64,000 nt of DNA from an uncultured Deinococcaceae bacterium (GTDB taxonomy: Bacteria > Deinococcota > Deinococci > Deinococcales > Deinococcaceae), in assembly GCA_963783475.1 (NCBI GenBank), contig CAWANW010000018.1, forward strand, positions 22,285 through 86,284, read 5' to 3'. The notes beneath the pieces were generated by a model, which saw only the letters and a program-made list of their open reading frames with translations, searched no databases and was not told the DNA's origin. Positions 7,513 through 12,873 of the stretch are shown one piece after another (the stretch's first letter is position 1; each line of letters opens with the position of its first letter). A program made the translations under genes and the position numbers.

Positions 7513-8238
7513 CTAACGCCAGCTTCTGATGTCCGGCGGCAGATGCGCCACCTCGTTGAAGGAATCCAGGCTCAGGCGGCCCCCCCCGAAGGTAAAGCGC
7601 GTGAGGCTGCCGTTGCGCACGCGCCAGTTGAGCCGCAGCGCCGCCGCGTCCGGGGCGTCCAGGGCCAGCGCCACCATCAGCCCGATCACGCCGCCGCTGG
7701 TGAAGGCCAGCACCGAGGAGCCGGACGGCAGGTCCAGCACGTGGCCCAGCGCGGCCTGAACCCGCGAGCGGAATGCGGACCACGCCTCGACCTCAGCGTG
7801 CGTGACCCGGCCGGCCTGCCACGCCCCGGCGAGTTGCTCCAGCATGGGCTGAAAGGAGCGGTTGCGGTCCGGAGCGTCGCGGCGCTGCTGGAACTGTCGG
7901 ACGGCCGCCGCGAATTCGGCGTCCTGGGCGGCCAGCAGCGGCGCGAGGTCACGTATCAGGCCGTCACCGTCGTACTCGGCCAGACGGGCGTCTTCCACGG
8001 CGTCCGGCCAGAGCGGGGGGGCGTCGGCGTCGGCGAAATGCGCGGCCCCGGCCGCGATCTGGGCCGTGCGGCGCTGACGCACCAGCGGGCCGTGCAGCAC
8101 GTGGGTGGGCACAAACGTCTCGGTGCCCAGCGCCAGCCCCACCGCGCGGGCCTGCTGCTCGCCCAGCCCAGACAGGCGGTCCGTGTCCTGCTCAAACGGT
8201 GTCGCCTGGCCGTGCCGGATCAGAATCAGCTCACTCAT
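7513..8238 (-). CDS. Histidine phosphatase family protein
   Basis: LILIRHGQA motif; LAFTSGGVI; overlaps the upstream kinase gene. Confidence 0.85.
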   Translation of the reverse strand: MSELILIRHGQATPFEQDTDRLSGLGEQQARAVGLALGTETFVPTHVLHGPLVRQRRTAQIAAGAAHFADADAPPLWPDAVEDARLAEYDGDGLIRDLAPLLAAQDAEFAAAVRQFQQRRDAPDRNRSFQPMLEQLAGAWQAGRVTHAEVEAWSAFRSRVQAALGHVLDLPSGSSVLAFTSGGVIGLMVALALDAPDAAALRLNWRVRNGSLTRFTFGGGRLSLDSFNEVAHLPPDIRSWR

Positions 8239-9355
8239 CGGCCGGCCGGACCTCGCCGGCGTCGCCCGTCGCCTCGGCCGAGATGCGCCGCCAGGCTTCG
8301 CGGATCAGCCACTCGGCCTGCCCGGCCAGCGGAGCAAACCGTGGGTCGCTGGTCTGTCCGGCACGGTAGCGGGCAAAAATCTGGATCACGATCACGGCCA
8401 GCTTGAAATGGCCCAGCACCTCGTACCACCGGACTGAGTCGCCCGTCACGTGACGGCCCGACTGACTGGCATAACGGGCGATGAACTGCTCCCGGTCCAG
8501 AAAGCCTGGAAAGCTGGCTCCCACCTCGTTGACGCCCCGGCCCGGCTGTTCAGGCATGGTCCAGTACGTCAGCGTGAGCCCGAGGTCCACCAGCGGGTCG
8601 CCCACCGTGGTCATTTCCCAGTCCAGCAGGGCCACCACGTGCGAGGGATCGGCGGGATCGAGCATCAGGTTGTCCAGCTTCAGGTCGTTGTGAACCAGGG
8701 TGTGCGCGGACTCCGGGGGGGTCTGCTCCTCGAGCCACGCGATCACCAGTTCGTCGCGCAGTTCCGCCGGCGGGGGCAGGTCGCCGCTGTCTTTGAGCAG
8801 CTCGCGCGCCCGCCGCCAGCGCCCGGCCCAGCCGCCCACCTGCCGGGCGTTGAAGCCCTCCGGCTTGCCGATGGCCCGCAGGCCCGCCGCGTCGATGTCC
8901 ACCGCATGCAGGGCGGCCAGCGTGTCGGCCACCGCCTCCGACATCTGCCGTGGGGCGTCCGGCAGGGCGCGGTACTCGGGCGGAATGGTGGTGCGTACCA
9001 CCACGCCGCGCCGCCGCTCCATCAGGTAGAAGGGCGAACCCAGCAGGGCAGGGTCCTCGACCAGCAGCAGCGGTTCGGGGGCCACGGGCAGCACCGGATG
9101 AATCTTTTCCAGCAGGTGGTACTCACGGGCCATGTCGTGCGCGCCCCTGGCCACCGGCCCCAGCGGCGCGCGGCGCAGCACGTACTCGCGGCTGCCCATG
9201 CGCAGCAGGTAGGTCAGGTTGGAAAAGCCGCCGGGAAACTGCGCAACCTCCAGCGTGTCCAGGTCTCCCTCAACCCGGCCGCGCAGCACGTCCCGCAGGG
9301 TGTCCAGCGGCAGTTCCTCGCCGGCCCGCATCGATGACGTTTCCGGCCGGGTCAA
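8231..9355 (-). CDS. APH-family phosphotransferase (LvaA / ACAD10-11 kinase-like)
   Basis: QFPGGFSNLTY, HDMAREY, LVHNDLKLDN, LLDWEMTTVGDPLVDLG. Start is TTG 9355 (coupled) or ATG 9331. Confidence 0.9.
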   Translation of the reverse strand: MTRPETSSMRAGEELPLDTLRDVLRGRVEGDLDTLEVAQFPGGFSNLTYLLRMGSREYVLRRAPLGPVARGAHDMAREYHLLEKIHPVLPVAPEPLLLVEDPALLGSPFYLMERRRGVVVRTTIPPEYRALPDAPRQMSEAVADTLAALHAVDIDAAGLRAIGKPEGFNARQVGGWAGRWRRARELLKDSGDLPPPAELRDELVIAWLEEQTPPESAHTLVHNDLKLDNLMLDPADPSHVVALLDWEMTTVGDPLVDLGLTLTYWTMPEQPGRGVNEVGASFPGFLDREQFIARYASQSGRHVTGDSVRWYEVLGHFKLAVIVIQIFARYRAGQTSDPRFAPLAGQAEWLIREAWRRISAEATGDAGEVRPADE

Positions 9356-10164
9356 GGATGGCCCTCGGTGCGCGGGGCTTCGCCTTCCTTGAAAGCCGCG
9401 CCCTGTCCCAGCAGCGCCATGGCCTTGGTCCGCAGGTGACGCATCTTGCTGATCCACTCGCCGTAATCGCGCGCCTTGTTCTGGAAGGATTTCAGGGTGG
9501 TGTCGTGGGTGGTGATCAGGAAGCCGTCGGCACGCAGCACCTTCAGGGTCTCTTCCACCAGCACGTCGGTGGTCACGGCGGTCTGCTGCAAGATGGGGGC
9601 GTTCTCGATCATGGGCGTCCAGACCCCCTCAGGGCACAGACAGGCCACCTTGATGCCCCGGTCCCCGTAGGTGATGGCCAGCCATTCGGCGAAGGCCAGC
9701 GCGGCGTGCTTGGTCACGGCGTAGGGTGCGGAGTGCAGTTCGGTCAGCAGACCAGCAGCCGAGGCAGTATTCAGCAGGTGGCCCTCGCCGCGCTCCAGCA
9801 TGTGCGGCAGCAGGTGACGGGCGGCCCACACATGGGACATCACATTCACGCGGTGAATCAGATCCCACTGCTTGTCGGGCGTCTCCGGACCCTCGCCGAT
9901 GGCGATGCCGGCATTGGAACAGAACAGGTCAATCTGACCCTCCTGGCCCAGCACGTTTTCGATCAGCGCCTGGATATCGGCCTCCTGCCCCACGTCGGCG
10001 GCCACGAAACGCGCCCCGATCTCCTGCGCCTTCTGCGCGCCCACTTCCGCGTTGCGATCCGAGGCGATCACGGTGGCCCCCTCCTGCACGAAACGGGTGG
10101 CGAGGGCCAGCCCGATGCCCGAGGCGGCGCCAGTGATGACGACGATCTTGTTATTCAGTTCCAT
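9352..10164 (-). CDS. SDR family oxidoreductase
   Basis: TGAASGIG, NAG, TAS, YAVTK. Confidence 0.92.
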   Translation of the reverse strand: MELNNKIVVITGAASGIGLALATRFVQEGATVIASDRNAEVGAQKAQEIGARFVAADVGQEADIQALIENVLGQEGQIDLFCSNAGIAIGEGPETPDKQWDLIHRVNVMSHVWAARHLLPHMLERGEGHLLNTASAAGLLTELHSAPYAVTKHAALAFAEWLAITYGDRGIKVACLCPEGVWTPMIENAPILQQTAVTTDVLVEETLKVLRADGFLITTHDTTLKSFQNKARDYGEWISKMRHLRTKAMALLGQGAAFKEGEAPRTEGHP

Positions 10165-10202
10165 GAGGTCTCCTTGCGGCTGTCTGGCTCTCACAGCCAG
10201 GG

Positions 10203-11545: not shown

Positions 11546-11650
11546 GGGAATTCCTCGCTTTGGGGGAGAAGGTTTTCAGATAGAGGGGCCGGGCGCCGTC
11601 AGTGACCGTCTTGCGGCCTGGGCGCCCACGTCAGCCGCGGAGGCCGGCGG

Positions 11651-12100
11651 TCACAGATAGACCCGGAACACACTCTCCGCCGTTGCGGCGGGCCGCTCCT
11701 CACCCTCGATCTCGATGGTGTTCAGCACCGTGATCTGCATGAAGCCTGCGCCCTGGTCTGCACTTTGCAGGACGGCGCGGTTACGCAGACGGCTGCCGAC
11801 CTTGACAGGCGAGACGAAACGCACGCGGTTCAGGCCGTAGTTGACGGTCATCTGCGCGCCCTCGATCTGGACCGAGCCGCCGGTGTTCATGAACTCTCCG
11901 GCCAGCAGGGAGAGGGTCAGAAACCCGTGGGCGATGGTGATGCCGAACGGCCCGGCGGCGGCCTTCGCTGCGTCCACATGAATGAACTGGTGGTCCCCGG
12001 TGGCGTCGGCAAAGGCATCAATGCGCGCCTGATCCACCAGAACCCACTCGGAGAGCGCGACTTGCTGTCCGACAGACGCGGCGAGTTCGCCCGGCTTCAT
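11651..12100 (-). CDS. MaoC-family dehydratase
   Basis: FADATGDHQFIHVD, TIAHGFLTLSL, NYGLNRVRF. Confidence 0.92.
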   Translation of the reverse strand: MKPGELAASVGQQVALSEWVLVDQARIDAFADATGDHQFIHVDAAKAAAGPFGITIAHGFLTLSLLAGEFMNTGGSVQIEGAQMTVNYGLNRVRFVSPVKVGSRLRNRAVLQSADQGAGFMQITVLNTIEIEGEERPAATAESVFRVYL

Positions 12101-12873
12101 ACGACCATGGCCCCACCGTCCACGGCGATGTTCTGCCCGGTCATAAAGGCGCTGGCGTCGCTGGACAGCAGCAGGGCCAACCCCTTGAGGTCTTCGGCGC
12201 CGCCCAGCCGGTGCATCGGCGTGGCTTCCAGGATGGCCTGCTCGCCGTAGGCCAGCGTGCCCTTGGTCATCTTGGTGGGAAAGTAGCCGGGGCAGATGCT
12301 GTTGACCGTCACGCCCTTGTCGGCCATCTCGGCCGCCAGCGCGCGGGTAAAGTTCACCAGCCCGCCCTTGGAGGTGTTGTAGGCCAGCGTGGCGGCCATG
12401 CGCGGGTCATTGCCCTGCAATCCGGCGACGCTGGCGACGTTGACGATGCGCCCGCCACCGCGCGGCAGCATGCAGCGGTTCAGCACGCTCTGGGTGATCA
12501 GAAAGGTGCCGTTGAGATTGACGTTCATCACCTTCAGCCACGCGTCCAGCGGGTGTTCGGCCGTGGGCGCGCCCCAGGTGGCCCCGGCATTGTTCACCAG
12601 GATGTCGATGCTGCCCACCTCAGACACGATCTTCTCGACCGTGGGATCGATGCTGGCAAAGTCACCCAGATCGTTGGCATAGACGTGCGCCGTGATGCCC
12701 AGTCCCTCCAGGTGGGCCCTGGCCTCATCCAGCTCGTTCTGTTTGCGGGCGGTCAGGACCACGGTGGCCCCGTACTCGCCCAGCGCCTCGGCGATCTGCA
12801 GACCCAGGCCGCGCGAGCCTCCGGTGATGAGGGCGGTTTTTCCGCTCAAGTCAAACAACTGTTTCAGGGCCAC
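12097..12873 (-). CDS. SDR family oxidoreductase
   Basis: TGGSRGLG, NNAG, ASVAG, YNTSK. GTG start. Confidence 0.92.
   Translation of the reverse strand: MALKQLFDLSGKTALITGGSRGLGLQIAEALGEYGATVVLTARKQNELDEARAHLEGLGITAHVYANDLGDFASIDPTVEKIVSEVGSIDILVNNAGATWGAPTAEHPLDAWLKVMNVNLNGTFLITQSVLNRCMLPRGGGRIVNVASVAGLQGNDPRMAATLAYNTSKGGLVNFTRALAAEMADKGVTVNSICPGYFPTKMTKGTLAYGEQAILEATPMHRLGGAEDLKGLALLLSSDASAFMTGQNIAVDGGAMVV

Follow-up and report, generated by a model that had tools for sequence, protein, structure and literature searches.

Why should a phosphatase-like gene lie beside the gene for a kinase whose product is to be consumed? The question is raised by a run of six genes in the genome of an uncultured Deinococcaceae bacterium (assembly GCA_963783475.1, contig CAWANW010000018.1), within a stretch of 64,000 nucleotides (nts) that is called the window below. 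On its minus strand, from position 12873 down to 7513, six co-directional genes follow one another. According to Pfam profiles and the reading of the gene junctions, they code for a short-chain dehydrogenase/reductase (SDR1), a MaoC-type hydratase, an acyl-CoA dehydrogenase-fold protein (ACAD), a second short-chain dehydrogenase/reductase (SDR2), an aminoglycoside phosphotransferase (APH)-fold kinase and a histidine-phosphatase-family protein. We consider it likely, at a probability of roughly 0.72, that these genes form one operon which moves 4-hydroxyacyl-CoAs, and probably also 4-oxoacyl-CoAs, into beta-oxidation. Its core is a split pair of the ACAD10/11/LvaA-LvaC type, and the corresponding pathway is known from Pseudomonas, Burkholderia and mammals.

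The ACAD gene (positions 10283 to 11545, minus strand) codes for a protein of 420 amino acids (aa) of the ACAD10/ACAD11/LvaC type with three Acyl-CoA_dh Pfam domains. Its assignment to a clade, like that of the kinase, relies on the separation of bit scores combined with signature residues: among all solved structures it scores 470 bits with mouse ACAD11 (8v3u), 469 bits with human ACAD11 (2wbi) and 451 bits with the Mycobacterium abscessus orthologue 4hr3, whereas the next family (SCAD/FadE3) reaches only 135 bits and all other ACAD families in the PDB stay at or below that value. An LRLADGPD stretch identical to that of ACAD11 keeps the catalytic Asp (D753 in mouse ACAD11) in place of the usual Glu, and a 13-residue stretch comprising an upstream Arg and an HCMR motif is likewise identical, at the positions of R626, H634 and R637. 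These three residues of ACAD11 have been proposed to bind phosphate, and Rashan et al. (PMC12440821) describe the upstream Arg, HCMR and the catalytic Asp as residues that only ACAD10/11 and LvaC possess and that the turnover of 4-phosphoacyl-CoA requires. The catalytic Asp is kept in 49 of 49 related ACADs of the loci fetched from other genomes, those of Deinococcus reading DGPDIV, and the Arg/HCMR stretch is found in all type-A homologues. On these grounds the ACAD is predicted to eliminate phosphate from 4-phosphoacyl-CoA.

The kinase gene (positions 8231 to 9355, minus strand; 374 aa) belongs to the ACAD10/11/LvaA type and matches the APH Pfam profile with 163 bits. Among solved structures, the “ACAD10 kinase domain” of Caldalkalibacillus thermarum (9o56) gives the best score, 310 bits in an alignment that covers almost the whole protein; 3dxp follows with 133 bits and the kinase domain of ACAD11 with 124, while other APH proteins, including ordinary aminoglycoside kinases, do not exceed 34 bits. 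The catalytic motifs are intact: the beta3 Arg (VLRR), the HxDxK...N catalytic loop (HNDLKLDN) and the metal-binding DWE (LDWEM). The same beta3 Arg, catalytic Asp, Lys and Asn, and DWE are present in 9o56, where the matching residues were found to be essential by mutation (bioRxiv 10.1101/2025.09.10.675409). The protein is a predicted 4-hydroxyacyl-CoA kinase. Both ACAD and kinase, each single-copy in the source genome, fall inside the Lva/ACAD11 clades, where the earlier note on this DNA, made from the letters alone, had placed them.

The six genes are tightly packed. SDR1 starts with a GTG at position 12873, preceded by a ggagg Shine-Dalgarno sequence. The start of SDR2 was refined to an ATG at 10164 with aaggag upstream (the starting open reading frame (ORF) spanned 9352 to 10254), and that of the kinase to a TTG at 9355 (starting ORF 8231 to 9457), which overlaps the SDR2 stop codon in a TTGA. 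The N-terminus of 9o56 is consistent with this start, and PGAP has called the same one for the gene of Deinococcus sp. AJ005. Overlaps of 4 nts join SDR1 to MaoC and SDR2 to the kinase, both pairs being translationally coupled, and one of 8 nts joins the kinase to the phosphatase gene; the two gaps, 105 nts between MaoC and ACAD and 118 nts between ACAD and SDR2, contain no gene. A promoter-like site, consisting of TTGACG and TATGCT separated by an 18-nt spacer and recognised only by its match to the sigma-70 consensus, lies about 60 nts upstream of SDR1 (positions 12933 to 12962, minus strand). It is the sole such match between 7300 and 13300, a span for which shuffled sequence averages 0.3. 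Since the run is flanked by a convergent gene of the gamma-glutamyl-GABA-hydrolase family and, on the other side, by a divergent chemosensory operon, and since its junctions and gaps read as described, the unit consists of these six genes. The strand-coherent run from 7513 to 12873 and the lack of a CoA ligase within it, both pointed out in the earlier note, hold: Pfam places all six genes on the minus strand, and the eight AMP-binding genes of the genome all lie elsewhere.

How the six products might act together can be proposed from homology, from gene coupling and from position. The acids would be converted to their CoA esters by an acyl-CoA ligase encoded elsewhere. Judging from tested homologues, the kinase would then use ATP to phosphorylate the 4-hydroxyl group of 4-hydroxyacyl-CoA, and the ACAD would remove phosphate from the resulting 4-phosphoacyl-CoA in a redox-neutral, FAD-dependent reaction to give 2-enoyl-CoA. 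SDR2, whose gene overlaps the start of the kinase gene and travels with it in Planctomycetota, would for this reason be expected to interconvert 4-oxo- and 4-hydroxyacyl-CoA in an LvaD-like step, either feeding in 4-oxo acids or correcting the stereochemistry at C4. MaoC would hydrate 2-enoyl-CoA to (3R)-hydroxyacyl-CoA and SDR1 would oxidise the latter to 3-oxoacyl-CoA, so that the two coupled genes would represent a split version of an MFE-2-type enzyme. Likely sources of substrate would be gamma-lactones, 4-hydroxy acids and products of lipid peroxidation such as derivatives of 4-hydroxynonenal.

The three enzymes around the core fit these roles with different degrees of precision. MaoC (positions 11651 to 12100, minus strand; 149 aa; MaoC_dehydratas, 89.7 bits) scores 145 bits with M. 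tuberculosis Rv0130 (2c2i) and contains the stretch TGDHQFIH, whose Asp and His we take to be the hydratase-2 motif; the protein is probably an (R)-specific enoyl-CoA hydratase of the Rv0130 type. SDR1 (12097 to 12873, minus strand; 258 aa; adh_short, 193 bits) is a FabG/Gno-like member of the PRK08213 subfamily (400 bits for a cut-off of 279), and among solved structures the Gno and FabG ketoreductases come nearest to it. SDR2 (9352 to 10164, minus strand; 270 aa; adh_short, 148 bits) is a classical short-chain dehydrogenase/reductase for which the best solved match, the (3R)-hydroxyacyl-CoA dehydrogenase of yeast MFE-2 (114 bits), is a generic one; indeed both proteins give generic matches only. 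SDR1 shows the motifs TGGSRGLG, LTARK after beta2 and YNTSK, and SDR2 shows TGAASGIG, an Asp ending beta2 (IASD) and YAVTK. If, as we assume, the usual cofactor rules of the family apply, by which Asp after beta2 indicates NAD(H) and Arg-Lys at this place NADP(H), SDR2 probably prefers NAD(H) and SDR1 NADP(H).

This leaves the sixth protein. The gene at positions 7513 to 8238 (minus strand; 241 aa) codes for an atypical PGAM-fold member of the histidine phosphatase superfamily (His_Phos_1, PF00300; 68 bits for a cut-off of 21.7), which NCBIfam, the protein atlas and PGAP alike name only “histidine phosphatase family protein”. The AlphaFold2 model has a pLDDT of 95.6; in fold it comes closest to PGAM5, PhoE and other small-molecule histidine phosphatases, with which it shares about 20 % identity. 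When 1.8 billion representative proteins were searched, 1318 clusters turned up at E <= 1e-10, nearly all of them stand-alone proteins of 230–240 aa. The nucleophilic His of RHG (H9), the two core Arg (R8 and R54) and the acid/base Glu (E88) do not vary across 28 aligned family members. Equally invariant is Ser181 (FTSGG), which occupies the position of the second His of the catalytic core and aligns with the His of PGAM5 “CHANVIR”. The pattern used in the search for loci, FTSGG, had been taken from a 10-sequence alignment, and the locus set is thus biased toward the Ser motif. The residue was therefore counted on phmmer representatives collected independently of the motif: 137 of these 141 have Ser at the position and not one has His. 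The protein is therefore a member of a distinct, atypical subfamily.

No fusion of the phosphatase to another domain was found by a single-protein search and by an alignment search confined to longer proteins, which is weak evidence; three long matches among the representatives were set aside as unrelated or artefactual fusions (FKBP; M48/ATPase fragments). In metagenome-assembled genomes of Bryobacterales/Solibacteraceae (L065, L110, L114, L118 and L119), each cluster contains two paralogous Ser-type phosphatase genes in the order kinase, phosphatase', ACAD, phosphatase, the first copy being 31–35 % identical to the protein of the window.

What could such a protein contribute? Its most likely activity would be the hydrolysis of the intermediate, as 4-phosphoacyl-CoA or as the free 4-phospho acid, in cases where further processing is blocked. 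The protein would then act as a safety valve or proofreader against a dead-end intermediate that traps CoA, and would be an analogue of the unrelated HAD domain of ACAD10. Paquay et al. (PMC11342911) reported that free 4-phospho acids build up in cells and that the ACAD10 kinase prefers the R-isomer only about 4-fold, which makes a wrong-isomer or overflow problem plausible. In the same work, the HAD domain of ACAD10 showed negligible activity on the 4-phospho intermediate, yet it restrains the kinase. We propose tentatively, and with more doubt than confidence, that the PGAM-fold Ser-type protein is a dedicated third enzyme of the pathway, a 4-phosphoacyl-CoA/4-phospho acid phosphatase that edits intermediates which are stalled or of the wrong stereoisomer, possibly together with SDR2 in a cycle correcting the stereochemistry at C4. 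No part of the model is weaker than the phosphatase step: with the core His gone, the protein may work by a different chemistry or play a role other than catalysis.

That the phosphatase belongs to the pathway in some manner is suggested by its genomic context in other phyla. A scan of a genome collection gave 80 loci anchored on phosphatase homologues, which span Planctomycetota, Acidobacteriota, Verrucomicrobiota, Myxococcota, Pseudomonadota, Chloroflexota and others. In 34 of them an ACAD of the ACAD10/11 type and/or the kinase is encoded no more than 5 kb from the phosphatase, in 27 both are, and the ACADs concerned are up to 72 % identical to that of the window. If only the 46 loci that extend for 5 kb or more in both directions are taken, ACAD or kinase is found within 5 kb in 22. 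The order of genes is variable. Three Planctomycetota loci (L058, L070 and L080) read ACAD-SDR2-phosphatase-kinase; L059 reads ACAD-phosphatase-kinase with an SDR2 orthologue about 2 kb upstream, and Acidobacteriota loci read phosphatase-kinase-MaoC-ACAD. SDR2 orthologues, 45–51 % identical to that of the window, lie in the three Planctomycetota loci (there at about 50 %) and also within L051, L059 and L124. Because the order recurs in the sampled Deinococcaceae loci and in other phyla, the arrangement seen in the window is not due to chance.

Where the phosphatase appears “solitary”, the genome still encodes an ACAD (65–69 % identity) and a kinase homologue elsewhere (5/5). Among 121 Acidobacteriota genomes, 24 contain the ACAD and four the phosphatase, all four being ACAD-positive (0 of the 97 ACAD-negative genomes); all these counts, including those of the 80 loci and those of the Deinococcaceae given below, are indications rather than statistics, since the genomes are related and distant members may escape a search with one protein. 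Taken together, they point to the phosphatase as an optional component nested within the pathway.

The other neighbours in these loci are informative as to the chemistry involved. All ORFs of 98 fetched loci were clustered and Pfam was run on the cluster representatives. Recurrent neighbours are a FadB-like hydratase/dehydrogenase (18 loci), crotonase (15), a PTGR1/alkenal-reductase-like medium-chain dehydrogenase/reductase (13), acyl-CoA ligase (10) and thiolase (8), besides other ACADs and two kinds of alpha/beta hydrolase (esterases). Enzymes of glycerolipid metabolism are not among the recurrent neighbours of the 98 loci, whose context is that of acyl-CoA, lactone or alkenal chemistry. The PTGR1/leukotriene-B4-dehydrogenase-like reductase (ADH_N_2 + ADH_zinc_N) adjoins the module in L031, L034, L041, L042, L050, L051, L054, L088, L103, L105 and others, and would fit a detoxification route leading from 4-hydroxyalkenals to 4-hydroxy acids. 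The source genome has one PTGR1-like copy, located outside the operon (G000:C2:113772-114092).

In the Deinococcaceae the operon is conserved. Of 82 genomes belonging to its genus, 72 contain the kinase; so do most of those from two sister genera, but it was found in none of the 30 from a third. Kinase and phosphatase are each found in 77 of 91 Deinococcaceae genomes. Seven genomes of the own genus have neither, three the kinase alone and two a full-length phosphatase alone, while another contains a phosphatase fragment. Kinase and phosphatase are thus mostly present or absent together in the Deinococcaceae. To compare gene order, 18 kb around the kinase were taken from 18 genomes, and the six proteins were compared with them by tblastn. 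All six genes are found on chromosome II of D. radiodurans and in several other Deinococcaceae, and the core of ACAD, SDR2, kinase and phosphatase in most Deinococcus loci. In the Deinococcota loci kinase and ACAD are neighbours. In D. radiodurans R1, the orthologous operon DR_A0193-DR_A0200 has the same order, with protein identities of 64–82 % (tblastn). The phosphatase corresponds to DR_A0193, the kinase to DR_A0194, SDR2 to DR_A0195, the ACAD to DR_A0196, MaoC to DR_A0199 and SDR1 to DR_A0200, and two extra genes between MaoC and ACAD (L131/L044) code for a PaaI thioesterase (DR_A0198) and a hypothetical protein (DR_A0197). A literature search on the locus tags found no functional study of DR_A0193-DR_A0200; the genes do appear in a table of the region deleted in recA mutants (PMC8149714).

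The window is DNA of a high-GC Deinococcus. Among annotated records, those closest to it come from Deinococcus sp. D7000 and AJ005, large “plasmids” with an ACAD 96–97 % identical to that of the window. On AJ005 p380k (L129), a macro-domain “Appr-1-p processing” gene and a CbrC-family gene (5492-6004 and 7455-7994) occupy the two junctions that are empty in the window. The MaoC-ACAD and ACAD-SDR2 junctions seem to be hot spots for the insertion of accessory genes. A search of the plasmid collection found no lva-type operon, and on C. necator pHG1 the ACAD is present without the other genes of the module. At positions 9000 to 13000 of the window, the operon has a GC content of 0.64–0.68, slightly below the 0.71–0.76 of the flanks; acquisition by horizontal transfer was considered on this account and set aside, given that the operon is conserved across the Deinococcaceae.

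A second subgroup of ACAD10/11-type proteins, here called type B, is 40–50 % identical to the ACAD of the window; its HCMR is retained, and the sequence around the catalytic Asp is RIYDG[AP]DEV (loci L038-L043, L055, L061, L083, L098-L100 and L108). In Planctomycetota and Hydrogenedentota it is found in the order phosphatase-ACAD-kinase, and in Thermaceae-type genomes it accompanies the kinase without a phosphatase gene. The only ACAD beside the kinase in the latter genomes is a distant one (about 43 % identity) with HCMR and Asp kept.

Several observations weigh against the function proposed for the six genes. In many genomes the pathway can dispense with the phosphatase: 20 of the 24 ACAD-positive Acidobacteriota genomes gave no match to it, and Thermaceae-type loci combine kinase and ACAD without it, no HAD phosphatase being found at the equivalent place, which is taken up by an arginase-family gene and the gene of a long ACAD. 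Without the second core His, moreover, the protein may be no phosphatase at all. The operon itself contains no CoA ligase, transporter or regulator. An NADP(H)-preferring SDR1, as it looks, is unusual for a catabolic dehydrogenase, and the assignment of steps to the two short-chain dehydrogenases/reductases could be the reverse of that given above. More generally, the activities discussed here are predictions. Finally, the closest solved relative of the kinase, 9o56, was reported to phosphorylate 1-O-alkylglycerols in vitro, and the physiological substrate of the family is debated (bioRxiv 10.1101/2025.09.10.675409).

An alternative is that two units lie side by side, in which case only ACAD, SDR2, kinase and phosphatase would serve the 4-hydroxy acid route while SDR1 and MaoC would constitute an independent pair for (R)-3-hydroxyacyl-CoA, of the type associated with polyhydroxyalkanoate. 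The 105-nt gap between MaoC and ACAD fits such a division, as do the different inserts which this junction has received in different species (the macro-domain gene in one, the PaaI thioesterase and hypothetical genes in another), the NADP(H)-like features of SDR1 and the existence of Deinococcus loci (L034, L047 and L048) that have the four-gene core with no SDR1-MaoC nearby. However, the sole promoter-like site is upstream of SDR1. Homologues of MaoC (tblastn, 40–51 % identity) are present in 15 of the 80 non-Deinococcus loci, 14 of which have them at most 5 kb from the phosphatase, and orthologues of SDR1 (45–62 % identity) are found in the same loci of other phyla; in Acidobacteriota MaoC even lies directly between kinase and ACAD. 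We therefore regard a division into two units as improbable.

Equally improbable is that the six genes are dedicated to the catabolism of levulinate and 4-hydroxyvalerate in the manner of lvaABCDE of P. putida KT2440. As the work of Rand et al. (2017) is presented in PMC12440821 and PMC11342911, the P. putida operon likewise combines a separate kinase (LvaA), an ACAD (LvaC) and a short-chain dehydrogenase/reductase, and its route leads via 4-phosphoacyl-CoA to enoyl-CoA. The window thus has homologues of LvaA and LvaC, one of its two short-chain dehydrogenases/reductases possibly stands for LvaD, and the chemistry would be the same (PMC12440821, PMC11342911). What is missing is a gene of the size of LvaB, for which the gaps of 105 and 118 nts offer the only space, as well as the LvaE ligase and the LvaR regulator, which are absent both in and beside the operon. 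Conversely, MaoC, the second short-chain dehydrogenase/reductase and the phosphatase are no parts of lva, and in other phyla the module lies inside general clusters for the beta-oxidation of fatty acids, including FadB of the long-chain type. It is therefore unlikely that this is an lva operon in the strict sense, and the label “LvaACD” in the earlier note, sound as regards the homology of kinase and ACAD, was too specific given that LvaB, LvaE and the regulator are missing.

A third possibility concerns the kinase. The C. thermarum protein was reported to be a 1-O-alkylglycerol kinase stimulated by acetyl-CoA in vitro, with chimyl alcohol among its substrates, and several prokaryotic homologues behave likewise. 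The same 2025-26 preprint describes the HAD domain of ACAD10 as a lipid-phosphate phosphatase and has the kinase domains act with CoA thioesters, while it calls the relation of the two activities unclear (bioRxiv 10.1101/2025.09.10.675409). Applied to the window, this would turn the operon into one for lipid salvage, with a CoA-thioester-activated 1-O-alkyl/acylglycerol kinase and with a phosphatase partner, as in ACAD10, that would be the counterpart of the HAD domain. The gene context argues for acyl-CoA substrates instead: the kinase shares its operon, and elsewhere its polypeptide chain, with an ACAD bearing the phosphate-binding Arg/HCMR site. As the recurrent neighbours are all acyl-CoA enzymes with none for glycerolipids, and as ether lipids are to our knowledge not known in Deinococcus, a role in glycerolipid salvage is very unlikely, somewhat more so than the two preceding alternatives.

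Kinase fusions of two kinds were encountered. Proteins of 750–764 aa from Myxococcota and metagenomes (P0151-P0153) combine an N-terminal ACAD with a C-terminal APH kinase; the order of domains is reversed with respect to ACAD10/11, from which it follows that the bacterial and eukaryotic fusions arose independently. In Geodermatophilus spp. (P0155-P0158, about 705 aa), an N-terminal kinase is joined to a C-terminal SGL/strictosidine-synthase-like six-bladed propeller, a lactonase-type fold, which hints at a coupling of gamma-lactone opening to the phosphorylation of the 4-hydroxy acid.

Compared with the systems described so far, the operon closely resembles mammalian ACAD10 and ACAD11 (8v3u, 8v3v, 2wbi; PMC12440821, PMC11342911) in its combination of the APH-fold kinase and the special ACAD. 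It shares with ACAD10 the presence of a phosphatase-fold module as well, but this has the HAD fold there and the PGAM fold here. Furthermore, the activities are encoded by separate genes instead of one polypeptide, there is no organelle targeting, and SDR1, MaoC and SDR2 belong to the same operon. In relation to lvaABCDE, the window is without LvaB, LvaE and the regulator and has MaoC, a second short-chain dehydrogenase/reductase and the phosphatase in addition. The stand-alone kinase and ACAD orthologues of B. pseudomallei, unfused as in the window and closer to ACAD10/11 than are the P. putida proteins, replace the domains of ACAD10 in vitro, which means that the expected chemistry has already been demonstrated for unfused bacterial proteins; the paper describes no phosphatase or SDR partners for this pair (Paquay et al., PMC11342911). 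Neither the recurrent association of an atypical phosphatase with the kinase/ACAD pair nor the set of SDR2, MaoC and SDR1 was found described in the literature searched.

Next to the operon, a long ORF at positions 6491 to 7507 (plus strand) is convergent with the phosphatase gene and lies outside the operon. Its real start is probably near an internal “MSARPLIGL...”, and the syntenic gene of AJ005 is annotated as a member of the gamma-glutamyl-gamma-aminobutyrate hydrolase family (class I amidotransferase-like).

Since the core pathway is established, the operon by itself adds another bacterial example of it. The occurrence of the operon in D. radiodurans is of interest because this organism is genetically tractable and has been studied for its tolerance of oxidative damage, and 4-hydroxy and 4-oxo products of lipid peroxidation are plausible substrates. 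In the dispute over 4-hydroxyacyl-CoAs or alkylglycerols as the substrates of ACAD10-type kinases, the context of beta-oxidation genes, thioesterase, ACAD fusions and a lactonase fold favours the acyl-CoA side. A further point is that a sizeable family of atypical histidine phosphatases is tied to the pathway in several phyla, in parallel with the unexplained HAD domain of ACAD10. If the editing role tentatively proposed for it were true, one and the same kinase/ACAD pair would have acquired a phosphatase independently in bacteria, with the PGAM fold, and in animals, as the HAD domain of ACAD10, which would be of direct relevance to the dispute about what that HAD domain does.

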